Of a stretch of DNA of 20,588 nucleotides, positions 1,345-20,588 are shown in pieces. A program made the position numbers and the translations under genes. Below the pieces are notes generated by a model. The model searched no databases. It saw only the letters and a program-made list of their open reading frames with translations, and had not been told where the DNA came from. Every line of letters starts with the position of its first letter. Within the stretch, counting starts at the first letter, position 1. Source of the DNA: a virus (Duplodnaviria > Heunggongvirae > Uroviricota > Caudoviricetes); IMG/VR virus record IMGVR_UViG_2531839584_000015, one strand, 5' to 3'.

Positions 1345-1647
1345 ATTGCTGTATCACTATGAAAATAAATGTGTTTTTATTTGATTTCACACATATCACA
1401 ATTGATGCATTTTTTAGTGATTAGTAAAGACATTTCAATGGATTACCGTTAAATCATTTTAAAATCAGTAAGTTGTATCGAGTTTGTATGCTTTACTGTC
1501 ATTAACTTACTGTATGTTGATCCAGTGTATTTAACCTTGATAAACTCAGTCCAGCAACACAAAACCGCAACACATTGCATTTTGTCCCGTAGAAAAGACT
1601 TGTATGTGTGAGCTTGTTTTCTGCGCCTACGCAGATAAGGATTGAGA

Positions 1648-3045
1648 ATGCCGCGCACTGTAACACATAATCCGGATAGCCCCAATAATGACGATGTTTT
1701 AGCCGCATCTGAAAAATGGGACGCCTGTAAACCCCCCTATACCAGCGCACACATGAAAATCTGTGTTGCTGCCGCCAAAATCATCCTCGCTGCTTCCGGC
1801 GTGGCTCGCCGTTCCAAATACGAAAAAGAGAACTATCTCCGTATCGATTTCAGCAAAGCCGGTAAGGTTACATTTTACGCCGAGTTTCCAAAAAAGATGG
1901 GCCTCAAGGGTAAAAAGCTCGGCGAGTGGCCGGAGCTCGCTATCCAGCTGGCGCGCGAAAAAGCGCTAGGTATGGCTGACGGTGGCTTGCGGGCAGAGTC
2001 CGTACATGCAGCGCTGGAAATGTACCGGGATGACCTCAAAGCCAAAGTCGCCCGGCAGAAGCTGAGCCCGGACAGTTTCACAACCTACGGGGTGCGTATC
2101 GACCGGATTAAAGCAACGTTCGGCGAGCGTGAGGTGTTCAGCGACGTAACATACAATCGGCTGGTGGAAGTGCTGGACGAGTGGATCGCCACTCGCTCGA
2201 ACAATAACGCCCTGGAGTTGTTTGCCGAGCTCCGTCGGTTCTGGAAGTTCTGCGCACCTACTCTTTGTAACGGTCGCAATGTTGCTGCCAGTCTGCCAGA
2301 TGATTATGTTTCCTCCCGCGTACAGAAACCCACCCCCACACGGCTTTTTACCGATATTGAGTCAATCGCCCGGCTCTGGCTCAATGTTGCCGCCTGCACC
2401 TCTGTACACCAGAAGAATGCTGTTCGCTTCATGATCATCACCGGCGTTCGTCCGATTAATGTCCATAACCTGCGCTGGGACTACGTTCACGAGGAGACTG
2501 GCGAAATTGTTTATCCTGAAGGGGTTATCGGCATGCGAGGGGCTATGAAAACACAAAAGGCTTTCCCCCTGCCAATAACGCCGGAGATCCGGCGGATTAT
2601 CGACGAGCAGAAAGCATGGCGTGATTCAGTTCCTGAGTGCAACAGGGATTATGTATTTTTGCAGCCGCGTGATCCAATGCAGCCATTTTCAAAACGATCA
2701 CTGGATAAGCTAGTGAAAACATACAGCCCGGATGGGGCTGTAAAAGGAATAAAACATGATGGGACTGTTAAAGGGAAAGACGGTGCATTTAATACGATGT
2801 GCCGTAAATTCCTTAAGAGCAATGTTATTGCCTTGATGAAGGAAAGAGGCTATTCCCGATCAGACCGAAGGGAAATCAGCCTCCTTTGCCTTCACCACTC
2901 CAGCAAGTCAGATGACCCGATGGCAGAACATTACGACTTTTCTGATGAGATTTTGCAGGAAGAGATTGCGTTAAAGCGCGAAGCTTTCGAGGCTCACGAG
3001 CGGAGCATACTTGCGCAGGTGGCATTGCTACGGCGGCGAGGGTAA
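1648..3045 (+). CDS. Tyrosine-type site-specific recombinase (phage integrase)
   Basis: ORF 1642..3045; ATG at 1648 is preceded by TAAGGA (1636..1641). C-terminal region has a catalytic-domain-like layout (R...H-x-x-R...Y: GVRPINVHNLRWDYV, LLCLHHSSKSD, AEHYDF). Confidence 0.8.
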   Translation: MPRTVTHNPDSPNNDDVLAASEKWDACKPPYTSAHMKICVAAAKIILAASGVARRSKYEKENYLRIDFSKAGKVTFYAEFPKKMGLKGKKLGEWPELAIQLAREKALGMADGGLRAESVHAALEMYRDDLKAKVARQKLSPDSFTTYGVRIDRIKATFGEREVFSDVTYNRLVEVLDEWIATRSNNNALELFAELRRFWKFCAPTLCNGRNVAASLPDDYVSSRVQKPTPTRLFTDIESIARLWLNVAACTSVHQKNAVRFMIITGVRPINVHNLRWDYVHEETGEIVYPEGVIGMRGAMKTQKAFPLPITPEIRRIIDEQKAWRDSVPECNRDYVFLQPRDPMQPFSKRSLDKLVKTYSPDGAVKGIKHDGTVKGKDGAFNTMCRKFLKSNVIALMKERGYSRSDRREISLLCLHHSSKSDDPMAEHYDFSDEILQEEIALKREAFEAHERSILAQVALLRRRG

Positions 3046-3242
3046 TACCGGCTGCGACACTTTTGAATAAAAGCGTCGACATTGCGGCGCTCATAACGAA
3101 CTACTTTTGCACTGAAACGAATTGGTGCCAGGATAGCCCGATGACGATGCTTAATATTCCACTCACATAGCGTTTTCTGTGTAATACCTAACTTTTGGCA
3201 TACTTCATCCGGGGTGAGTAAATCGTCGGGTTTCTCGCTCAT
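2994..3242 (-). CDS. AlpA-family HTH protein (excisionase / prophage transcriptional regulator)
   Basis: 82-aa ORF with LLTPDEVCQKLGITQKTLCEW HTH typical of AlpA/Xis-like proteins. Its 3' end overlaps the convergent integrase 3' end by about 52 bp. Confidence 0.65.
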   Translation of the reverse strand: MSEKPDDLLTPDEVCQKLGITQKTLCEWNIKHRHRAILAPIRFSAKVVRYERRNVDAFIQKCRSRYYPRRRSNATCASMLRS

Positions 3243-4636
3243 GCTATACCTCTCTTTTTCATGGCATCGAGCAGGATGTCCTGCACTGTTCGTTTTGAGT
3301 TGCGCCGCTCCATCACCATTTCGTCCATAGTGTCGGCAGCAATAATGTGGTGAATAAATACCGGACGATTGTGTCCGGCCTGTATCTGCCTGGTGGGGCC
3401 GATACGTTCAATAATTTGCTGATATTGCTCCAGGTCCCACCAGTGTGAGAAAAATACCAGTATATTTCCGCCGTCTTGCATGTTCAGGCCGTGGCCCGCG
3501 CTGGCTGGGTGTGCAAAGAGAACAGGAATCTTTCCGGAATTCCAGTCGCGCAGTGTCTGTGGATCCTGGTCGAGGTGACGACCGCGAGGGAATGCTTTAA
3601 GCAAGCGTTCAAGATCGTGTTTCCAGTGATAAGCAACCAGCACAGGTGCGCCAGCTGCTTCGGTCAGTATGCTGTCCAGCGCCTGTAGTTTGGTGTCATG
3701 CAGTTCTGACCAACTTCCGGTGTCGTCTGTGTATACTGCGCCACTGGCGATTTGAAGACACTTCAGTGTCTTTGCCGCGGCGTTCGGTGCTTCGATGCCT
3801 TCGCCATTCAGCTCGAGGAACATTTCCTTTTCCATTTCACGATACTGCTGACGGGCCTTCGGCGGCATATCCACGCGGATTACGTTATGGATGGGGTCTT
3901 TGATATCGAACCAGTCGGCCGCATCTAGCGAGAGGGTCACATCGGCTAATGCTCGCTGTATTTCACCCTGTGAGTGAGCAAAAGGCTCCAGTTTAGTCCA
4001 GCTCTGTCCCGGAAACTGTATCGAGTTGAACCAGCGTGAGGTAAACGCACCGTAAGTGCGCCCGAGACGTTGCCCTTGGTCCACAAACCACGATTGTCCC
4101 CACAAATCTACCAGGCCGTTCGGTGCTGGCGTACCGGTGAGATTTATCCAGCGCCGGACATACTTATGCGCCACTTTGCCCAGTGCCGCCGCGCGCTTAC
4201 CACCACCTCGCAGCCGGAAGGATTTTAGCCGGGTGCTTTCATCTGGAATGACAATACCGAACGGCCATCGTTCTCCCAATTCTTCAACCAGCCAGACAAG
4301 GTTATCGTAGTTGATGGTGAACACGCTTGCGTTGCTGTTCGCCAGCGCCGTAGAGCGCGCTTTGGCATTACCAACAATCGGCTGCACCTCGATATTGCGC
4401 AAATGCCCCCACTTCACTGCTTCATCCGGCCAGGTGTTTGCTGCAACACGTAGCGGCGCGAGGACCAGTGCGGGGCGTGTTTCTGCCCCTGCCATAAAAA
4501 GATCTTCCAGCGCAGTGAGCGTTGCCACGGTTTTACCCATTCCCATACCTGCCCAGATGTTGCAGCGCATAATGTCGATTTGATGATTGATGATGAGATC
4601 TTGGTAGGGGTGAGGTGAAAATATAGCATAGTCCAT
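3239..4636 (-). CDS. SNF2-family (DEAD/DEAH-like) DNA helicase, phage replication
   Basis: Walker A GMGKT, motif II region IVIPDESTRLKS (DE..RLK as in SNF2 proteins), C-terminal helicase domain. RBS GGAGA upstream of ATG at 4636. Confidence 0.75.
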   Translation of the reverse strand: MDYAIFSPHPYQDLIINHQIDIMRCNIWAGMGMGKTVATLTALEDLFMAGAETRPALVLAPLRVAANTWPDEAVKWGHLRNIEVQPIVGNAKARSTALANSNASVFTINYDNLVWLVEELGERWPFGIVIPDESTRLKSFRLRGGGKRAAALGKVAHKYVRRWINLTGTPAPNGLVDLWGQSWFVDQGQRLGRTYGAFTSRWFNSIQFPGQSWTKLEPFAHSQGEIQRALADVTLSLDAADWFDIKDPIHNVIRVDMPPKARQQYREMEKEMFLELNGEGIEAPNAAAKTLKCLQIASGAVYTDDTGSWSELHDTKLQALDSILTEAAGAPVLVAYHWKHDLERLLKAFPRGRHLDQDPQTLRDWNSGKIPVLFAHPASAGHGLNMQDGGNILVFFSHWWDLEQYQQIIERIGPTRQIQAGHNRPVFIHHIIAADTMDEMVMERRNSKRTVQDILLDAMKKRGIA

Positions 4637-7157: not shown

Positions 7158-9221
7158 TTAATCCTTACGGTAGTGGTACGCCTCAAAACCGCCAGCGTTC
7201 AGTGGGATATCTGGCGCCCATTCGGGGTTAGTGGAGAGAAGCGCGGAAAGCGCTTTATCGTTGAAATCTTCTGTGTCAGGTGATTCGGTGATCACCTCGT
7301 CGTGTACCGTCAGCACAATGCTGTAACCGGCATCTTCGATAAGCGGCATGTTTCCGGCCAGAACGTCGCGGGCGGCCGCCTGGGTGACGTTCTCCACCAG
7401 CTTTCCGCCGTAGGTTTTGAGTCGTTGCCATTTACGCGAATAAGAGTTAACACCCATGTAGGTGATATTCCCTTGTTCGATAACCGGAGACGGGTAGCAT
7501 ACAGCGCGTCCGGATGGTAGCTGTATGCGCAGCCACGCGCCATCGCGGCGGATTTTAAGATAACCGCAATACAATGTTTTTTGCGGTGTGGCGATTGCTG
7601 TGCGGACGGTGCACTCCAGTTCGTACCAGAAATCACAGGTCGCGGGATGCGCCCGGCGCCAGAGACGTTTAAGTGAGTCGCAGGCGATAAATACCCGTTC
7701 AGAAAGCCCGTAGGTCGATTTACGTTTAACCGATTCGTCGTACCAGCTTTTCGCCTCGCGGATAACATCGCGGGGAATGTTTGGCAGTGCGGCGTTCGCC
7801 AGCCCGTCGAGATCGAGACCGTAAACCAGAGCAAAAGTGATGAAAGCCGATACACCTCCTCCATAACCCAGACCGAGTTCCATGACTTTACCGATCTGAC
7901 GCATGTGTTTATCAACATCATCTGGTGCAATATCGAAAGCTTTTGCATACGCCAGTTTATATAAGTCCGGACCCGTTCCGGCGTCGTACTCTCTGAATGC
8001 ATTCAGTTTCCATTCTTCTCCCGCCAGCCATGCCAGCATACGGCCTTCAATGTTCGACAAGTCACTTACCACCAGCTTTTTGCCTGTTGGCGCGATAATG
8101 CAGCCACGTAACGCTGAACTGGTTAGTTCCATGATATTGTCAAACAGCAGGTCTGCACATCCGGCTTTCAGTGCTTCGATGCCTTCGTCTATTTGTTCCT
8201 GTTTTAGTGAAGGGCGGGGAAGGTTCTGGGGCTGGAATAGCCGTCCGGCCCAACGACCGGTACGTGACGCCCCGCAGAACTGTAGCGTACCGCGTAAGCG
8301 CCCGTCGTGGCTTACGCCTTTCATCAGTGCCTTGTATTTACTGGTGCTGGTAGTACTGGCCTGCAGGCGGATAGCCAGCAGTTCTTTCACGGCAGATGGT
8401 AAATCGGGGTCGGCAATACGACGTTCCAGAGTACTGCGTTGCATGTCTGGTAGCTCCACACCGTAGGATTCAACAATGTGCTTAATCAACGCGTCTCGTT
8501 GTGTGGCTGCCTGCACTTCGCCATCAGTCATTTCCTGTGTACGCTTTGCCAGGCGCTTTTGTTCCTGGTCTACCGCGTCGATCGCAGCGCGTGCGAGTTC
8601 CACGTCCATGCAGACGCCCCGGTCATTGATCTGCTGATCACGATGCCAGAGCGCCAGTTCTGTCCCCTGATAATTCCACTTCGGCAGACGTTTATAGACT
8701 TCGCGCATTGCCTCGATATCCAGTCCGGCGTAAGCAACAAAGCGCCGCCATTCTTCCGGGTGGGTTTTGCTGGTGGCCCGGCGCAGTTTGCTGTTTTTCG
8801 GGCGTGGCTTACAGAACAGCTGGATCAGCGCTTTACCTTCTTTGTCCTTCGCTTTGTCTTGCGGGACGCCTAGTACTTCGCAGAGTTCCCCCAGAGACCC
8901 CGGGAGACCGTGCGCCAGCGCCTGCACCATCGTGTCGCGCCAACGTTCGACTGGCGGTGCCAGTCGCGGCATTGCATAACGCAGGACGGTGCGGTCGAAG
9001 TGAGAGTTATGAAAATAAAGCAGGGTTTCAGGGGCTGCGATTGCTTCGTATAAGCCGTGTGGAATACCACCACCGGCAGTGATATCCCATACGTTTACTG
9101 GCCCGTCGTTGATAGCCCATGCGAACAGCATCACTTCAACGCCTTCGGCATACGCATGGGTACCGTTCGTAATAGGGATTTCGCAATAGGTTTCCAGGTC
9201 GCCCCATAGTATATTGGACAT
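7158..9221 (-). CDS. Family A DNA polymerase with N-terminal 3'-5' exonuclease domain
   Basis: Exo I-like DLET near the N-terminus. Motif A DLSNIEGR, motif [13 protein letters not shown], motif C LTVHDE. Length 687 aa. Confidence 0.85.
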
Positions 9222-13499: not shown

Positions 13500-14123
13500 C
13501 TAACGTTTACGGCGGTAAATACGGTGTTCGATCATTACACCTATGATCTGTAAGTTCATATCTGCACTACGAAAAATAGGGTAATCAGGATTTAGGGGGA
13601 TTAATTCAAAGTCGTCGATGCCGATTCCTAATGGACGGTATTTTTTAAATGTAGCTTCGTGACCGTCGTTTTTGGCGACAACAAACTCCCCTGGTGCAGG
13701 ACATAGATCAGGATCGATGATAACAATGTCTCCTTCTTTAAACTCTGGTTGCATGCTGTCGCCATCAATACGTAATGCGAAGCATGTTTCTGGAATGTCA
13801 GAGTCTGCCAAAATATATTCAAATTCCCCTGTCAGATCTGTTATGTCTCTTGCTTCTGTAAGCTCTCCTGCCTGAACGTAACTTAATATAGGTATGCGTC
13901 TGGTACTTATCTCCGCGAGAGGCATAATATTTTTACCGTTCAGTAGCCAGTCTGGGCTACATTTCAAGGCCTTAGCCAGATCCAGAAGATTGCGCGGCTT
14001 TCTGGTTCGTCCACTTTCGATGGATTCTATGGATTGTTGGCTAACCCCTGCAGAATTCGCTACTTCCACTTGAGTCATTCCTAATTCCAAACGACGTGCT
14101 TTAAAACGGGCTGCGAGAGACAT
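13500..14123 (-). CDS. cI-like phage repressor (XRE-type HTH + LexA-like S24 peptidase domain)
   Basis: HTH LGMTQVEVANSAGVSQQSIESIE; Ala-Gly cleavage site (VQAGEL); Ser/Lys dyad context (GDSMQPEF, VVAKNDG). Start taken at ATG 14123 (MSLAARF...) with AAGGA RBS; the track ORF extends 17 codons further upstream. Confidence 0.8.
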   Translation of the reverse strand: MSLAARFKARRLELGMTQVEVANSAGVSQQSIESIESGRTRKPRNLLDLAKALKCSPDWLLNGKNIMPLAEISTRRIPILSYVQAGELTEARDITDLTGEFEYILADSDIPETCFALRIDGDSMQPEFKEGDIVIIDPDLCPAPGEFVVAKNDGHEATFKKYRPLGIGIDDFELIPLNPDYPIFRSADMNLQIIGVMIEHRIYRRKR

Positions 14124-14243
14124 GGGATTAGTCCTTCTGGGTTGTATTAATGTGTATACCCACATTAAAAACAATTTTTGTTGTATTTGACAAACCTCGT
14201 TTGTTGTTGCTAAATACCACTAAAATTGTATGAGGTGAAAGCA
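14124..14243. promoter_or_regulatory. Divergent cI/cro promoter-operator region
   Basis: Perfect inverted repeat TTAATGTG-N6-CACATTAA at 14147..14168. TTGACA at 14187..14192, followed 18 bp later by TAAATA, faces the cro-like gene. Confidence 0.5.
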
Positions 14244-14456
14244 ATGACCTTAGCGACCCGAGTAAAAGAACGACGTAAAGAACTCAAAATGACGCAAGTT
14301 ACGTTGGCTGAGCTCACAGGAGTGAGCCAGCAGGCAATAAACAGAATTGAAAGTGGTGTTATTGCTCGGCCACGTTATCTTCTTGAAATGTCTATAGCAT
14401 TGGATTGCGACCCTAATTGGCTGTTGTATGGCTCACAAAACGATAAAAAGGCTTAA
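14244..14456 (+). CDS. Cro-like XRE-family HTH regulator
   Basis: LKMTQVTLAELTGVSQQAINRIESG HTH. ATG at 14244 has GAGGTGA 5 nt upstream. Divergent from the cI-like gene; stop lies 3 bp before the primase start. Confidence 0.75.
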   Translation: MTLATRVKERRKELKMTQVTLAELTGVSQQAINRIESGVIARPRYLLEMSIALDCDPNWLLYGSQNDKKA

Positions 14457-14459
14457 CCC

Positions 14460-16646
14460 ATGTCCGATAGCAAACCATGGGGAGCTACGCCTGATGAGTG
14501 GTTTCATTTCGACCTGGTATTGGGGAGAACTGAGCATCTTCTCCCAGTTGTATGTAACCCCGGTGCGACCATATCCCCTGATAGTAAACTGAAAGCGCTG
14601 GGCAAGACGCCAAGTCGCTATAACCGGGACCGCCAGGTCACCGGTATTGCTCAATGGACCGGGTATGTTGTTACTGAGCATGATTTTGCCCGCTGGTCGA
14701 ATGAACCGGATTATGGCATCTGCGTGCGTACAGGCCATGGCTGGCTGGCGCTGGACTGCGATAGCGAAGATGAAGACATTCAGGCAGATATTCGCAAAAC
14801 GCTTGTGCAACTTCTGGGGGAGTTGCCGCCGCGACGCTGGCGAGCAAACAGTAATAAGTGTCTGTATCTGCTGGCCGTTGATGGTGATTTCCGTAAGCGT
14901 ATCCATCGCCTGGCGGGGGATATGGGCATTATCGAGTTGCTGGCGAACGGGCAGCAGTTCGTTGCCTGTGGTACGCACAGCAGCGGCGCGCGTATTGAAT
15001 GGGACGGTGGTTTGCCGGATGAACCTCCGGCTATTACTGGTGAGCAGCTTGAAACGCTGTGGCAGCGCCTGGCTGAACAACTCCCTGTGTCGGTAACCAC
15101 CGAAGCGGGCAACACGAAGATGCGCGACCGATCAGCATTCACGCCCGGCGCGACGGATGATACAGCTGAATATCTTGATGCCAATGGCTGGACGCTGCTG
15201 GATGGCGCAAATGGTGAACGATATATCCGCTGTCCGTTTGAAGACGGCCACAGTAGCGGGGGCGATCCAACAAGCACAGCTTATTTTCCTGCGGGAACCG
15301 CGGGCTTTGAGCAGGGGCATTTTAAATGCCTGCATGCCAGTTGTGCGCATCGTGATGACGGAGATTTCCTTAATGCCATCGGGATCCGCAACGACGATTT
15401 CGAAGATCTGACCAGCACCGAAGTGGCGGAACCTTTACCGCTGCCTGCTTTCGAGCGTGATAAATGGGGGCGTATCGAGGCAACCATCAGCAACGCAGCC
15501 AAAGCAGTAGTACGCCCTGATTTTGTGGACATCGATATTCGCTTTGACCAGTTCCGCGACGAAATCATGTTTGCCCCTGCAGGATCCGGACAATGGCGAG
15601 CATTCACCGATGCGGATTATGCGCGCCTGCGCATCACGATGGAAAAGCGGGGATTTAAACCTGTTGGTCGTGAACTTATTCGCGATGTGGTGTTACTTGC
15701 AGCCGATGAACAACCATTCGATTCAGCGATCACCTGGCTGAACGGGCTGGAGTGGGATGGCGTGCCGCGCATCGAATGTTTCTACCATACGCACTTCGGT
15801 ACAGCCAACACGCCTTATACCCGTGCGGTGTCTATGTACATGTGGACCGCGTTGGCGGGGCGAGTACTGGAGCCAGGCATCAAAGCGGATATGGTGCCGA
15901 TCCTCGTTGGTCCGCAGGGCTGCGGTAAGTCTTCCGGAGTGGAGGCACTGAGCCCTGATCCTGCGTTTTTTACTGAAATCTCTTTTGCCGAAAAAGACGA
16001 TGATCTCGCTCGAAAAATGCGTGGTCGGCTGGTGGCAGAGATTGGTGAACTGCGCGGACTTAATACCAAAGAGCTGGAGTCAATCAAAGCGTTTGTGACA
16101 CGTACTCACGAAAACTGGATCCCGAAATACCGGGAGTTCGCCACCCAGTTTCCTCGTCGCCTGGTGTTCGTTGGTACCACCAATGAGGACGAATTCCTTG
16201 CGGACAAGACTGGTAACCGTCGCTGGCTCCCCGTGGAAGTGTCGAAAGTCGACGTGAAAGCGATAAAAAGAGATCTCCTTTTACTTTGGGCTGAGGCTCG
16301 TGAGGTGTTTCAGCGTCTGGGGGGTATCCAGTTCCGTGAGGCTGAACAACTGGCAGCGAGTGTCCATGAACAGTACACCATCAAGGATGCTTGGCTTGAA
16401 ACGGTAGAGAAATGGCTCGACACGCCAGACCTGATGACTAATGAACTTCCGCGAAATTGCGAATTTTTACGCGCAAGTGATGTTTTGCGTGATGCGATTG
16501 GGCTAAATCCTGACCGCATCGGAAAACGCGAAGAAATGCGAATTAGTAATGTTTTGCAAAATTGCGGGTATAAGCGTGCCCAAAGGCGAATTGGGGGGAA
16601 AAAATGCAAGGTTTGGGAACCGCTGGAACCACGCGGAACCACCTAG
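14460..16646 (+). CDS. Replication initiator: primase-polymerase (Prim-Pol) N-terminal domain + zinc-binding region + VirE/P4-type P-loop NTPase
   Basis: 728 aa. Walker A GPQGCGKSS in the C-terminal half. Cys/His cluster CPFEDGHSSGG...HFKCLHASCAH. N-terminal acidic catalytic-like segment LALDCDSEDED. Operonic with cro. Confidence 0.7.
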   Translation: MSDSKPWGATPDEWFHFDLVLGRTEHLLPVVCNPGATISPDSKLKALGKTPSRYNRDRQVTGIAQWTGYVVTEHDFARWSNEPDYGICVRTGHGWLALDCDSEDEDIQADIRKTLVQLLGELPPRRWRANSNKCLYLLAVDGDFRKRIHRLAGDMGIIELLANGQQFVACGTHSSGARIEWDGGLPDEPPAITGEQLETLWQRLAEQLPVSVTTEAGNTKMRDRSAFTPGATDDTAEYLDANGWTLLDGANGERYIRCPFEDGHSSGGDPTSTAYFPAGTAGFEQGHFKCLHASCAHRDDGDFLNAIGIRNDDFEDLTSTEVAEPLPLPAFERDKWGRIEATISNAAKAVVRPDFVDIDIRFDQFRDEIMFAPAGSGQWRAFTDADYARLRITMEKRGFKPVGRELIRDVVLLAADEQPFDSAITWLNGLEWDGVPRIECFYHTHFGTANTPYTRAVSMYMWTALAGRVLEPGIKADMVPILVGPQGCGKSSGVEALSPDPAFFTEISFAEKDDDLARKMRGRLVAEIGELRGLNTKELESIKAFVTRTHENWIPKYREFATQFPRRLVFVGTTNEDEFLADKTGNRRWLPVEVSKVDVKAIKRDLLLLWAEAREVFQRLGGIQFREAEQLAASVHEQYTIKDAWLETVEKWLDTPDLMTNELPRNCEFLRASDVLRDAIGLNPDRIGKREEMRISNVLQNCGYKRAQRRIGGKKCKVWEPLEPRGTT

Positions 16647-16805
16647 AAGAGAAGGTGGTTCCACCTTGCAGACCTTGTGGCAAGCGGGGCGGAACTACTG
16701 GAACCACTGGAACCGCCTTTCTACTAGAAACCCCATATATATATATAAGTCGATTGAGGGAAAGGTTAGGAAAAGGTGGTTCCAGGTGGGGGCAGGTGGT
16801 TCCAC
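16616..16805. repeat. Putative origin of replication: iteron arrays flanking an AT-rich (AT)7 tract
   Basis: GGAACC(A/G)C-type repeats at 16616, 16625, 16635, 16691 (GGAACT), 16700 and 16709, spaced about 9-10 bp. Inverted copies GGTGGTTCC at 16654, 16775 and 16795. AT-rich CCCCATATATATATATAAG at 16731..16749. Overlaps the 3' end of the primase gene. Confidence 0.6.
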
Positions 16806-16806
16806 T

Positions 16807-16849
16807 CCGCATTAGCAACTTTTTGCATGTTGATACATGCAATATGCGG
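16807..16849. promoter_or_regulatory. Nested palindrome upstream of the Q-like gene (candidate operator)
   Basis: TTGCATGT-TGAT-ACATGCAA (16823..16842) nested inside CCGCAT...ATGCGG (16807..16849). Confidence 0.35.
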
Positions 16850-16934
16850 ATCGGAACTGCGTTATCCACACCCACGGATATACAGACGTAGTTCTCAGAA
16901 AATTTTTTCGTAGCAAAACGTAGAGGTCAGAGCT

Positions 16935-17357
16935 ATGCGTAATATTCAACAGGTTTTAGAGCGCTGGGGTGGCTGGGCAGCGAGTGAAGGTGGTAGCGTC
17001 TACTTTCCTCCTGTTGCAGCCGGGTTTAAGAATCTGCTACCCGCGACGCAGTCTGGAAGGCTGAAATGCAGTGACAATGACGGTCTTATCATCAACTCCG
17101 CTATGAGCTGCTTGAAGAAAAAAGATCCGTATCTGTGCACGCTCCTTGAGTGGCATTACGTCCAGGCCATGCCCGTGAGGGCGATGGGTGAGAAGCTCGG
17201 CGTATCTCACACCCACGTTCTGAAGAGGCTTCAGGCGGCAGAGGGATTTATTGACGGTTGCTTAGCCATGCTGGATGTGGTGCTCGAAATGGATCAGTCG
17301 GTTCAGTCAAAGCCTCAGGCTATCAGGACTTTGCGTAGGAGCTGCTCGGCGGCATAA
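16935..17357 (+). CDS. Phage antitermination protein Q (QuuD-like, Phage_antitermQ family)
   Basis: N-terminus MRNIQQVLERWGGWAA...AAGFK and C-terminal KRLQAAEGFIDGCLAMLDVVLEMD closely resemble E. coli prophage QuuD-type Q proteins as I recall them. Confidence 0.8.
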   Translation: MRNIQQVLERWGGWAASEGGSVYFPPVAAGFKNLLPATQSGRLKCSDNDGLIINSAMSCLKKKDPYLCTLLEWHYVQAMPVRAMGEKLGVSHTHVLKRLQAAEGFIDGCLAMLDVVLEMDQSVQSKPQAIRTLRRSCSAA

Positions 17358-17974: not shown

Positions 17975-18794
17975 GGCACTGTTGCAAAGTTAGCGATGAG
18001 GCAGCCTTTTGTCTTATTCAAAGGCCTTACATTTCAAAAACTCTGCTTACCAGGCGCATTTCGCCCAGGGGATCACCATAATAAAATGCTGAGGCCTGGC
18101 CTTTGCGTAGTGCACGCATCACCTCAATACCTTTGATGGTGGCGTAAGCCGTCTTCATGGATTTAAATCCCAGCGTGGCGCCGATTATCCGTTTCAGTTT
18201 GCCATGATCGCATTCAATCACGTTGTTCCGGTACTTAATCTGTCGGTGTTCAACGTCAGACGGGCACCGGCCTTCGCGTTTGAGCAGAGCAAGCGCGCGA
18301 CCATAGGCGGGCGCTTTATCCGTGTTGATGAATCGCGGGATCTGCCACTTCTTCACGTTGTTGAGGATTTTACCCAGAAACCGGTATGCAGCTTTGCTGT
18401 TACGACGGGAGGAGAGATAAAAATCGACAGTGCGGCCCCGGCTGTCGACGGCCCGGTACAGATACGCCCAGCGGCCATTGACCTTCACGTAGGTTTCATC
18501 CATGTGCCACGGGCAAAGATCGGAAGGGTTACGCCAGTACCAGCGCAGCCGTTTTTCCATTTCAGGCGCATAACGCTGAACCCAGCGGTAAATCGTGGAG
18601 TGATCGACATTCACTCCGCGTTCAGCCAGCATCTCCTGCAGCTCACGGTAACTGATGCCGTATTTGCAGTACCAGCGTACGGCCCACAGAATGATGTCAC
18701 GCTGAAAATGCCGGCCTTTGAATGGGTTCATGTGCAGCTCCATCAGCAAAAGGGGATGATAAGTTTATCACCACCGACTATTTGCAACAGTGCC
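17975..18794 (-). mobile_element. IS26 (IS6 family), complete 820-bp copy
   Basis: 14-bp terminal inverted repeats GGCACTGTTGCAAA at 17975..17988 and the reverse complement at 18781..18794. Internal transposase matches Tnp26. Flanking 8-mers differ (CGCAAATC vs ACGTAATG), so there is no target-site duplication. Confidence 0.95.
18027..18731 (-). CDS. tnp26: IS26 transposase Tnp26 (DDE), 234 aa
   Basis: Protein MNPFKGRHFQRDIILWAVRWYCKYGISYRELQEMLAERGVNVDHSTIYRWVQRYAPEMEK... is the canonical IS26 transposase. The track ORF starts 6 codons upstream (MLMELH). Confidence 0.95.
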   Translation of the reverse strand: MNPFKGRHFQRDIILWAVRWYCKYGISYRELQEMLAERGVNVDHSTIYRWVQRYAPEMEKRLRWYWRNPSDLCPWHMDETYVKVNGRWAYLYRAVDSRGRTVDFYLSSRRNSKAAYRFLGKILNNVKKWQIPRFINTDKAPAYGRALALLKREGRCPSDVEHRQIKYRNNVIECDHGKLKRIIGATLGFKSMKTAYATIKGIEVMRALRKGQASAFYYGDPLGEMRLVSRVFEM

Positions 18795-19296
18795 ACGTAA
18801 TGCGCTGAACTGTGCAGGATGCGAGCTGATTTTTGAAGACAAGATAAGCGGCACAAAGTCCGAAAGGCCGGGACTGAAAAAACTGCTTAGGACATTATCG
18901 GCAGGTGACACTCTGGTTGTCTGGAAGCTGGACCGACTGGGGCGCAGTATGCGGCATCTTGTCGTGCTGGTGGAGGGGTTGCGCGAACGAGGCATTAACT
19001 TTCGTAGTCTGACGGATTCAATTGATACCAGCACACCGATGGGGCGTTTTTTCTTTCATGTGATGGGTGCCCTGGCTGAAATGGAACGAGAACTGATTGT
19101 TGAACGAACAAAAGCTGGACTGGAAGCTGCTCGCGCACAGGGACGAATTGGTGGACGTCGTCCCAAACTTACACCAGAACAATGGGCGCAGGCCGGGCGA
19201 CTAATTGCATCAGGAGTTCCTCGCCAGAAGGTGGCGATCATTTATGATGTTGGCGTATCGACTTTGTATAAGAAGTTTCCGGTCGGAGATAAATGA
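18795..19296 (+). pseudogene. Pin/Gin/Hin-family serine DNA invertase, 5'-truncated by IS26 (catalytic serine region missing)
   Basis: Translation RNALNCAGCELIFEDKISGTKSERPGLKKLL...GRFFFHVMGALAEMERELIVERTKAGL... aligns from about residue 19 of Pin/Gin. Homology starts exactly at the IS26 boundary. The N-terminal MLIGYVRVST segment with the active-site Ser is absent. Confidence 0.8.
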
Positions 19297-19376
19297 AACC
19301 GTAGCACGTCGTATGCAAGAACGTGCCACGGCTGGCTGATAAGCTTGTAAAAATATTGAACAGGGAGTGGAGCATT

Positions 19377-20024
19377 CTATGAAGCTAATTTGTTTAATTT
19401 CATTTGTAGTGACTTTACTTCTTGGTCGATAATGTCGAATCCCTTATTGACAGCATCTCTTAGCTCTGCATCAATATTTTTTATCCCTTGAGCATAATCT
19501 ACCATTACATTTATTTTTGCATCATGTAATCTTTTATACATGGTTTTATCTTTGTTATTGTCTGCCATGCCAATAAGGATTTTTTCATAATCCTCAATGA
19601 GTTTGTTGTTTCCTTTAAATGATTGTATTAATGAGCGTGAATATGTGTATATGTTAATTATTGAGTCTCTAGCAGAATCATTTAGTTTTGCAATGACATT
19701 CGCATTTTGCTCATAGAATGTGAAATTATCATCCCCTACAGGGAATGTGAGAATCAACATTTGTCCCGGTTTTATATTATCAATGTGTGTTTTCATCCTT
19801 TTATTATATAAATTGATTAGGGTGAAAACTTCTCCCTTAACTCCTTTTAATACTGAAAGTTGTAATTCAAGGGATTCTCTTTCTGTCTCTACTTTAGACA
19901 GCTTAGCTTGTTGGGTGACTCCTTTTAGGGTAAACCATCCGCCAATAAGAGTACCAACTAGAGCTGTGAGGGAGGAGGATAACCATCCAGGTATGCTATT
20001 TAAAAGATTACTAAATTCACTCAT
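19377..20024 (-). CDS. Hypothetical membrane-anchored protein, 215 aa (second copy of 204..851)
   Basis: Protein identical to 204..851 in the ORF track; part of the terminal duplication. Confidence 0.55.
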   Translation of the reverse strand: MSEFSNLLNSIPGWLSSSLTALVGTLIGGWFTLKGVTQQAKLSKVETERESLELQLSVLKGVKGEVFTLINLYNKRMKTHIDNIKPGQMLILTFPVGDDNFTFYEQNANVIAKLNDSARDSIINIYTYSRSLIQSFKGNNKLIEDYEKILIGMADNNKDKTMYKRLHDAKINVMVDYAQGIKNIDAELRDAVNKGFDIIDQEVKSLQMKLNKLAS

Positions 20025-20082
20025 TATAAGTACTCGCTAATATTGAACGATATATATATCAAATTATTATAAAACTCGTCAG

Positions 20083-20517
20083 CTACTGGAGAAGGCTACC
20101 TGAACTTCGAACTATTCCTGCATCCATATAGTTGATGGTCTTCTGGAGCTCTTCGATTAGGGCAACAGCTTTTGCTCGAGAAATGCATATTAGTTGATCC
20201 GGAAATTCTTGTAAGGGCCAGTTTGGTATACAGGCCATGTTATCAGTGAAGGATGCAGACAAGTAAACTTCATTGGTAACCAGAGAATAGCTTACCTCAA
20301 AATTGGTGAGTTCCGGCAAACTGCTAACGTTTGACTCTTTTCTGCGCATAATATTATCCATGACTGTAATTATGTACAGGTGATGGTCTTCAATTTCGAA
20401 GAGGGAGTCAAGGGGGAGTCTCAAATGAACCGTTATAGAAAAGGGGGGGATCTTTGTGTTGCTGAACTTATGCAAAATTTTTTTGCACCATAAATCCAAC
20501 AACACATTCAATAACAC
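20083..20517 (-). CDS. Hypothetical protein, up to 144 aa (second copy of 910..1344)
   Basis: Protein identical to 910..1344; same start-site uncertainty. Confidence 0.4.
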   Translation of the reverse strand: MLLNVLLDLWCKKILHKFSNTKIPPFSITVHLRLPLDSLFEIEDHHLYIITVMDNIMRRKESNVSSLPELTNFEVSYSLVTNEVYLSASFTDNMACIPNWPLQEFPDQLICISRAKAVALIEELQKTINYMDAGIVRSSGSLLQ

Positions 20518-20588
20518 ATTGCTGTATCACTATGAAAATAAATGTGTTTTTATTTGATTTCACACATATCACAATTGATGCATTTTTT

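Follow-up and report, generated by a model that had tools for sequence, protein, structure and literature searches.

A probable iteron-type replication origin beside a primase-helicase gene in a temperate enterobacterial phage family, with a natural series of initiator-iteron pairs

In Staphylococcus aureus pathogenicity islands (SaPIs), the Rep proteins are self-loading initiator-helicases, of which the structure 7PDS is SaPI1 Rep (PMC9371898). A winged helix in the C-terminal domain of SaPI Rep recognizes iterons, and SaPI origins have six to twelve iterons directly 3' of rep, with at least two on each side of an AT-rich centre and in opposite orientation (PMC9371898). Phage-inducible chromosomal islands (PICIs) of Gram-negative bacteria have the same arrangement, and pri-ori supports plasmid maintenance (PMC6092414). 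Sufficiency of Rep plus ori for autonomous replication, with binding and melting that need no ATP, is taken as a further mark of this replicon type. The viral record IMGVR_UViG_2531839584_000015 (Caudoviricetes; 20,588 nucleotides, hereafter the window) contains an array of short repeats, GGAACCRC, at the 3' end of a primase-helicase gene. Judged from sequence, these repeats are probably (about 0.8 by our estimate) the initiator-bound replication origin of a temperate phage, recognized by its own PrimPol-VapE primase-helicase. By the features compared below, the replicon belongs with the SaPI/PICI Rep-ori type, which is its closest analogue rather than phage lambda. A sequence-only reading of the window had already proposed an initiator-bound origin, and the conserved layout, the covariation between repeat word and protein wing, and the homology to SaPI1 Rep support this proposal.

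Over both strands of the whole window there are nine matches to GGAACCRC, compared to 1.08 on average and at most 5 in shuffled sequences; none of 100 shuffles reached nine. Eight of the nine exact words lie within 16616-16803. Exact and imperfect copies together make ten sites in three groups around a conserved core:

16616, 16625, 16635, 16700 and 16709, plus strand: exact GGAACCRC copies
16655, 16776 and 16796, minus strand: exact GGAACCRC copies
16691: copy with one mismatch, GGAACTAC
16784-16793: strongly degenerate copy, GGTGGGGGCA
16616-16662: auxiliary (left) iteron group, three direct copies over the primase stop codon and one inverted copy at 16655-16662
16691-16716, plus strand: central-left iteron group, made up of GGAACTAC, GGAACCAC and GGAACCGC, 9 bp apart
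16774-16803, minus strand: right iteron group, three copies, all inverted and 10 bp apart, of which the middle one is degenerate (GGTGGGGGCA)
16731-16770: core kept in all iteron classes, CCCC(AT)6AAGTCGATTGAGGGAAAGGTTAGG
16735-16746: (AT)6 tract, presumed melting site, followed by AAG

The start-to-start spacings of 9, 10, 20, 36, 9, 9, 67, and 20 bp agree with the direct and inverted arrays at 9-10 or 20 bp that were first described. The count of at least nine copies is partly right: there are eight exact copies and one with a single mismatch in 16616-16803, and nine or more is reached by counting a degenerate copy. Overlap with the 3' end of the primase gene was correctly noted; the first three copies are inside the last 31 nt of the 14460-16646 open reading frame (ORF; stop codon TAG at 16644-16646), so that the array starts 31 nt before the stop codon, and its last copy ends 157 nt past it. 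The array had been described as flanking an AT-rich tract symmetrically; the central and right groups do flank this tract, but the leftmost group is a separate cluster, and the tract between the inverted sets is (AT)6 rather than (AT)7. By nearest-neighbour energies, no other 16-mer in the 19,173-bp circle represented by the window is less stable than this tract (rank 1 of 19,158), which is consistent with the proposed DNA-unwinding element, although the alternating AT run is only 12-13 nt long.

The gene upstream of the array encodes the putative initiator, whose domains and C-terminal wing are as follows:

14460-16646, plus strand: putative initiator gene, 728 aa
Residues ~5-318: N-terminal archaeo-eukaryotic primase (AEP) PrimPol domain (PHROG 1156 primase; PF09250 Prim-Pol in relatives)
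Residues ~330-640: VapE/superfamily 3 (SF3)-type helicase (Pfam VapE-like, E 4e-60; PHROG 256 helicase)
Residues ~644-721: predicted C-terminal winged-helix domain (AlphaFold2, AF2, topology)
16569-16622, plus strand: codons 704-721, predicted beta-hairpin wing (AF2: strand 704-711, GG turn, strand 714-721, after helix 689-701)
16602-16616, plus strand: codons 715-719, K-C-K-V-W, which covary with the iteron word

The only sequence match in the PDB was 7PDS (phmmer E 4e-33). It was also the top Foldseek match to the AF2 model (E 1e-21, about 450 aligned columns, target template modelling score 0.65), ranking above the PrimPol-helicases of African swine fever virus, NrS-1, and poxviruses. The Foldseek match spans almost the entire chain, and identity to SaPI1 Rep1 is only about 22%. 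At residues 644-721 the model has helix-strand-helix-helix-strand-strand winged-helix topology with a predicted local distance difference test (pLDDT) score of about 80. The third helix of this domain, 689-701 (REEMRISNVLQNC), is invariant, and residues 715-719 fall on the second strand of the wing hairpin. At some loci from Xenorhabdus, Photorhabdus, Izhakiella, and Erwinia (L021-L023, L027, L028, L031), the match covers the PrimPol part (1-325) only, and at others the helicase and C-terminal domain (312-728) only. This suggests that the PrimPol and helicase halves also exist as separate genes, like SaPI1 pri and rep.

The locus has several features in common with SaPI and PICI replicons (SaPI1 Rep1, SaPI5 PriRep5, EcCICFT073 pri-rep-ori). 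The initiator is a ring helicase with a C-terminal winged helix (here predicted), and in SaPI5 it is fused to a primase as it is here. The origin is immediately 3' of the initiator gene, a position it keeps in about 100 relatives, and two opposite sets of short iterons flank an AT-rich centre (three plus-strand and three minus-strand copies in the window, one of them degenerate). Initiator and iteron also appear to be paired by lineage, as indicated indirectly by covariation. There are also differences. The words are 8-10 bp long compared to 5-6 nt in SaPIs. A conserved core of 40 bp surrounds the AT centre, which is an (AT)n run of 12-13 nt, and there is a third group of iterons across the stop codon. 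Spacing is 9 bp on the left and about 10 bp on the right. Unlike PICI satellites, which lack structural and lysis genes and depend on a helper, the phages of this family are complete and temperate, and they have LexA-type repressors, structural genes, and a DNA polymerase of their own. The relatives are complete prophages or phages, including the prophage of Escherichia coli ETEC-2264 (about 45 kb), Yersinia phage YeP4 with its virions, and APSE-1, a recognized phage of Hamiltonella. YeP4 is inducible and forms podovirus particles (PMC6548840).

Relatives of the locus were taken from annotated records (nine loci), GTDB species genomes (22), and IMG/VR (80), with APSE-1 in addition. About 100 loci have a common layout, seen almost everywhere between the gene for the primase-helicase and the gene that follows it. 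The auxiliary group at the stop codon comes first, and after it come direct copies, an (AT)n core followed by AAGTCG..GGGAAAGGTT, inverted copies, and lastly TTTTTTGCA. The auxiliary group (">>(>)<") is therefore part of the layout in relatives as well as in the window. Hosts include E. coli, Salmonella, Enterobacter, Pectobacterium, Xenorhabdus, Photorhabdus, Orbaceae, and a Burkholderiales metagenome-assembled genome, and the layout is also found in phages YeP4 and APSE-1. On the left, neighbouring copies are spaced 9 bp apart in 133 of 139 pairs; on the right, spacing is mostly 10 or 20 bp, and the motif ATATAAG is present in 96 of 106 loci. Core columns are conserved across 12 class representatives, and the sequence between copies is likewise kept across classes. 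The word itself differs between classes; ten words were scored (GGAACCAC, GTACCAAC, GTTACCAC, GTAACCAC, GTATCCAC, GTCCCAAC, GTCCCCAC, AGACAACC, AGACCACC, and GTAACAAC), and there are others, such as GTCACCAC in the Burkholderiales genome. At each locus the central and right groups share one word and change in concert. Short words evolving in concert on a fixed scaffold have the look of binding sites for one sequence-specific protein.

Some relatives carry variants of the element. The prophage of E. coli OkiPb01688 (L008, ~2900-3180) carries two complete origin cores, as a stretch of 137 bp with the central iterons, the AT tract, and the right iterons is duplicated in tandem. APSE-1 (NC_000935) has the same origin at 3306-3605, with iterons GTAACAACC/GTAACGACC and an extra right-hand group missing from the window. 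The annotated APSE-1 ORF P4 (3445-3666) sits within this origin and is probably not a gene. In the Enterobacter plasmid pE76_003 (CP042502.1; loci L115/L116), a prophage relative is interrupted by IS26-bounded plasmid DNA with sopA/parB and a "DNA replication protein" (partial replication gene) of its own, so this molecule is an IS26-mediated phage-plasmid cointegrate. It was considered as evidence for autonomous replication by the phage module and dropped, because the other replication and partition genes aboard allow no inference on the module.

Comparison of closely related phages with different words shows where the variable sequence lies. The window primase-helicase is 98-100% identical per 40-column block to the protein of E. 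coli BH100N (word GTACCAAC) from residue 41 to about 680, and to that of RIVM_C036204 (word GTTACCAC) from residue 81 to about 680, but the last 20 or so residues differ. At the DNA level, identity between the window and BH100N (L002) is 100% over 15929-16588, 46-86% over 16589-16858, and 93-100% from 16859. Because divergence is confined to the middle interval, the variable unit is a cassette:

16589-16858: specificity cassette of about 270 bp, consisting of the last ~19 codons and the repeats, with sharp boundaries

Within the cassette, residues 715-719 (the five residues after a conserved G-K) taken together account for 98% of iteron-class entropy in a set of 94 loci from 10 classes. The wing codons are upstream of the first iteron copy in other classes, and in the window only the last of them abuts the first copy. 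Wings and words are paired as follows:

KCKVW, KSKVW, KCKLW or KCKIW: GGAACCAC
MTRIF, VTRIF or MVRIF: GTACCAAC
LMKVW: GTTACCAC
VQRVW: GTAACCAC
KMRIF: GTCCCAAC
KQRIW: GTCCCCAC
QQR(V/I)F: AGACAACC
QIRVW: AGACCACC
SQRVY: GTAACAAC

The same wing-word pair can occur on primase backbones that are only 70% identical (Photorhabdus L030 and L023; also Xenorhabdus), and backbones that are 100% identical carry different pairs. An aromatic rule, with W accompanying CCAC and F or Y accompanying CAAC, holds in 93 of 93 sampled loci. Somewhat short of even odds, and so tentatively, we propose that origin specificity is set by a tiny portable module, in which five residues on strand 3 of the winged helix, and not the invariant recognition helix, read the variable iteron bases, with at least 10 orthogonal pairs arising by exchange of the 270-bp cassette. 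The first of the five residues (x1) may read TGG when it is K, TGT when it is hydrophobic, and TAGA when it is Q, and the fifth (x5) may read CCAC as W and CAAC as F or Y.

The same data bear on whether another phage or host protein reads the repeats, either as an origin or as some other site, with the tail of the primase merely linked to them. Wing codons adjoin the iterons at 0-100 bp, so physical linkage alone gives some association and could account for part of the covariation. Two early proteins, the DEAD-box/SNF2 helicase (19 loci, best column 57% of class entropy) and the integrase (one locus), are too thinly sampled to be set aside as readers. On the other hand, the best single column in nine other early proteins (44-78 loci each) explains at most 41% of class entropy compared to 98% for the wing; the proteins scored include DNA polymerase, DUF2800, DUF2815, cI, cro, and Q. 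The cI, cro, and Q proteins are identical in ETEC-2264 (GGAACC class) and BH100N (GTACCA class), and the small terminase subunit (TerS) is identical between the GGAACC and GTTACC classes. The divergent cassette holds no other gene, and homologous Reps bind their own downstream iterons (PMC9371898). A different reader is therefore improbable in our estimate.

Several observations, in addition to the linkage just mentioned, weigh against an origin read by the wing of the primase-helicase. The left iteron group is sometimes mixed in word, and the wing VLKVW is paired with two words. APSE-1 has GKVCRVW with GTAACAACC and a different third helix, which breaks the aromatic rule; this exception makes the rule a tendency only and the code less simple. 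The final 8-10 residues of the protein are encoded by the repeats themselves, so their covariation is trivial and without meaning. The winged-helix assignment comes from a full-length model with an overall pLDDT of 70. Modelled alone, the C-terminal domain has a pLDDT of 53, too poor for a fold search, and the full-length model was relied on for this reason. When a sequence profile of the C-terminal domain was compared against the PDB, 7PDS aligned only to the start of the winged helix, which means that sequence comparison does not pick up the winged helix. The AT tract is short, and its stability is unexceptional in windows of 30 bp or more. GC skew and cumulative skew rise monotonically over the circle with no switch at 16.7 kb, and so say little about the site either way. 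In addition, the single strand of 16685-16810 folds with z = -3.05, and none of 200 shuffles folded as well. A strict code in which one residue reads one base (W = C, F/Y = A) was also considered and rejected, as it is contradicted by APSE-1.

The folding result would fit a nucleic-acid structure as the functional unit, i.e., a hairpin or cruciform in single-stranded DNA or RNA, such as a single-strand initiation signal or an attenuator, in which the word changes are compensatory; class switches do keep the arms complementary. However, inverted iteron sets by themselves enable a single strand to form a bulged hairpin. Nothing in a stem calls for each arm to repeat one word in tandem, and with 9-bp spacing on the left and mostly 10-bp spacing on the right, the arms cannot pair without bulges. 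For the extra left group there is no arm to pair with, and covariation with protein residues is left unexplained by a stem. An Rfam search of 16300-17100 at a permissive E-value gave nothing relevant, with one sub-threshold c4-a1b1 match inside Q. We regard a structural element of this kind as quite unlikely, marginally more so than a different reader.

If the repeats are an origin, we infer binding, melting, bidirectional initiation, and a role for the wing as follows. Upon induction, the cro-primase operon would be expressed, and the C-terminal winged-helix domains of the initiator would bind the iterons, TGGAACC(A/G)C(C) of 9-10 bp, of which three in direct orientation precede the conserved core and three in inverted orientation follow it. 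Two helicase rings would assemble in opposite orientation and melt the (AT)6 tract, and the N-terminal PrimPol domain would prime synthesis. The family-A DNA polymerase, gp2.5-like single-stranded DNA-binding protein (DUF2815), and nuclease (DUF2800) of the phage would then carry out replication. The extra iteron group over the stop codon is probably an auxiliary loading or enhancer site. The cassette of about 270 bp, swapped among phages, would set origin specificity; wing residues 715-719 appear to read the variable iteron bases, and the ...ACC part, which does not vary, is presumably read by the invariant helix 689-701.

Downstream of the origin is an antiterminator gene:

16935-17357, plus strand: Q antiterminator gene (Pfam Phage_antitermQ, E 5e-42; context only, outside the origin)

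Q starts about 290 bp 3' of the primase-helicase gene on the same strand, and a scan of 16300-17100 found no promoter-like or terminator-like site. Transcription reaching Q must cross the origin. The array could then be a roadblock or operator instead of an origin, with bound primase-helicase gating read-through into Q and timing late expression, and the iteron group over the stop codon would suit such a function. Nevertheless, neither an AT core nor opposite orientations are needed by a roadblock, and inverted sets around an easily melted AT core match validated SaPI/PICI origins. YeP4 also keeps the element though its next gene is not annotated as Q. We give a roadblock in place of an origin as small a chance as a different reader. 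A regulatory role besides origin function is possible, and the iteron-bound initiator of the proposed origin may also gate read-through into Q, coupling late gene expression to replication.

Other well-known origin types each fail at least one defining feature. The lambda origin has four 18-19-bp iterons in the middle of O, and O, itself not a helicase, relies on P to bring in host DnaB. Similar to lambda, the present locus has iterons for a phage initiator beside an AT-rich tract, overlaps the initiator gene, and falls into specificity classes like those of lambdoid phages. Unlike lambda, its words are 8-10 bp long and in inverted sets, only the last 31 nt of the gene are involved, and helicase and primase domains are part of the initiator itself. 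Among the Pfam, PHROG, and RefSeq annotations of the window genes, none is O-like or P-like. The analogy to a lambda ori inside O, as drawn in the sequence-only reading, is consequently a loose one; most of the origin is 3' of the gene, and there is no O/P pair.

In phage P4, the alpha protein combines primase, SF3-type helicase, and a C-terminal origin-binding domain for octamer iterons in one polypeptide, and the putative initiator described here is predicted to have the same combination. The primase domain of P4 alpha is of a different type than AEP PrimPol, and P4 depends on an additional iteron cluster (crr) at a distance of several kb. No such additional cluster was found in the 19.2-kb circle, where a search for TGGAACCAC with up to one mismatch outside 16616-16803 gave five matches at four scattered places. 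A P4 alpha structure was absent from the PDB sequence matches and from the best 50 Foldseek matches. Iteron plasmids (RepA, pi, TrfA) have 17-22-bp direct repeats, and their WH1-WH2 Rep proteins recruit host DnaA and DnaB. They resemble the present locus in having a cognate initiator on repeated words beside an AT-rich tract, but word length and orientation differ, and a DnaA box is perfect in only 23 of 105 relatives of the window.

The replicon kind is already known from the SaPI/PICI Rep-ori type, and the phage family adds another member. What is new is a natural specificity series, which points to the wing of the winged helix as the iteron reader. The analysis locates a probable origin for a widespread enterobacterial prophage group, for Yersinia phage YeP4, and for the aphid-symbiont phage APSE. 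The searchable YeP4 and APSE papers make no mention of an origin or iterons, and the literature searched makes no mention of iteron origins with VapE or primase-helicase initiators in prophages or temperate phages. The presence of this Rep-ori type in complete temperate phages bears on the source of satellite replicons, and the family is possibly a relative of that source. With at least 10 natural initiator-iteron pairs on almost identical backbones, it offers a clean system for studying how winged helices read origins, and the series is also a source of orthogonal replicons. If the wing module is real, it would provide a ready-made recognition code for engineering them.

The window consists of a 19,173-bp circle and a 1,415-bp wrap, with 1-1415 identical to 19174-20588. 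By Pfam and PHROG, its gene content is the early region of a temperate phage, and this early module resembles those of APSE and YeP4. In addition to genes for the DEAD/SNF2 helicase, DUF2815 (gp2.5-like), and DUF2800 (nuclease), it includes:

~1345-1641: attP region
1642-3045: integrase
7158-9221: family-A DNA polymerase
13500-14174, minus strand: LexA/S24-type repressor
14226-14456: cro-like helix-turn-helix gene
17975-18794: IS26, 820 bp, with terminal repeats GGCACTGTTGCAAA and junctions at 17975 and 18795
18027-18749, minus strand: IS6-family transposase inside IS26

The 3.2 kb around the repeats is 100% identical to part of the complete prophage of ETEC-2264, which is located beside yfhL, and was matched in 145 of 5,426 complete E. 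coli genomes. IS26 stands in place of everything between a point 5' of the holin gene and roughly codon 26 of the invertase gene pinE. As a result, the 19.2-kb circle keeps integration, immunity, replication, and Q, and all lysis and morphogenesis genes are gone; structural and lysis genes are absent from the window copy only through this IS26-associated deletion. The circle represents the excised form of the phage genome and is either a real replicating circle or an assembly product.

This gene content also bears on whether the repeats could be a packaging (pac/cos), partition, or site-specific recombination site. Small terminase subunits and ParB also bind arrays of short repeats, and an invertase gene is present in the window. 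However, TerS is identical in phages with different words, the site is kept in an element without any packaging genes, and the window encodes no ParB. pinE is 2 kb away behind IS26, and the words are presumably unlike hix/gix sites. Of the alternatives weighed, this is the least likely, and its chance is very slight.

The repeat region was said to hold only spurious ORFs, and this is supported. The ORFs at 16549-16815 (plus), 16604-16891 (plus), and 16543-16875 (minus) show no conservation of strand, frame, or length across 12 relatives, three of which have no ORF of at least 50 aa in the region, and RefSeq annotates no coding sequence there in eight genomes. Other short elements are found around the iterons. 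A perfect DnaA-box consensus (TTATCCACA) is present at 16862-16870, in the gap that separates the iterons from Q, where it shares bases with an iteron-like word (GTTATCCAC). The relatives with a perfect box are all of E. coli-type lineages, and the others are at chance level, so the box was rejected as a family-wide origin feature. A perfect small hairpin, TTGCATGT-TGAT-ACATGCAA, is located at 16823-16842, 3' of the right iterons and a conserved TTTTTGCA motif, and no T run follows it. At 16663-16690, the spacer that separates the auxiliary group from the central group is GC-rich in the class of the window (CCTTGCAGACCTTGTGGCAAGCGGGGC), and in most relatives (compared in L002, L005, and L009) the same spacer is AT-rich with the look of an integration host factor site (ACATTTTAACTAATTGAATTTAAAGG).

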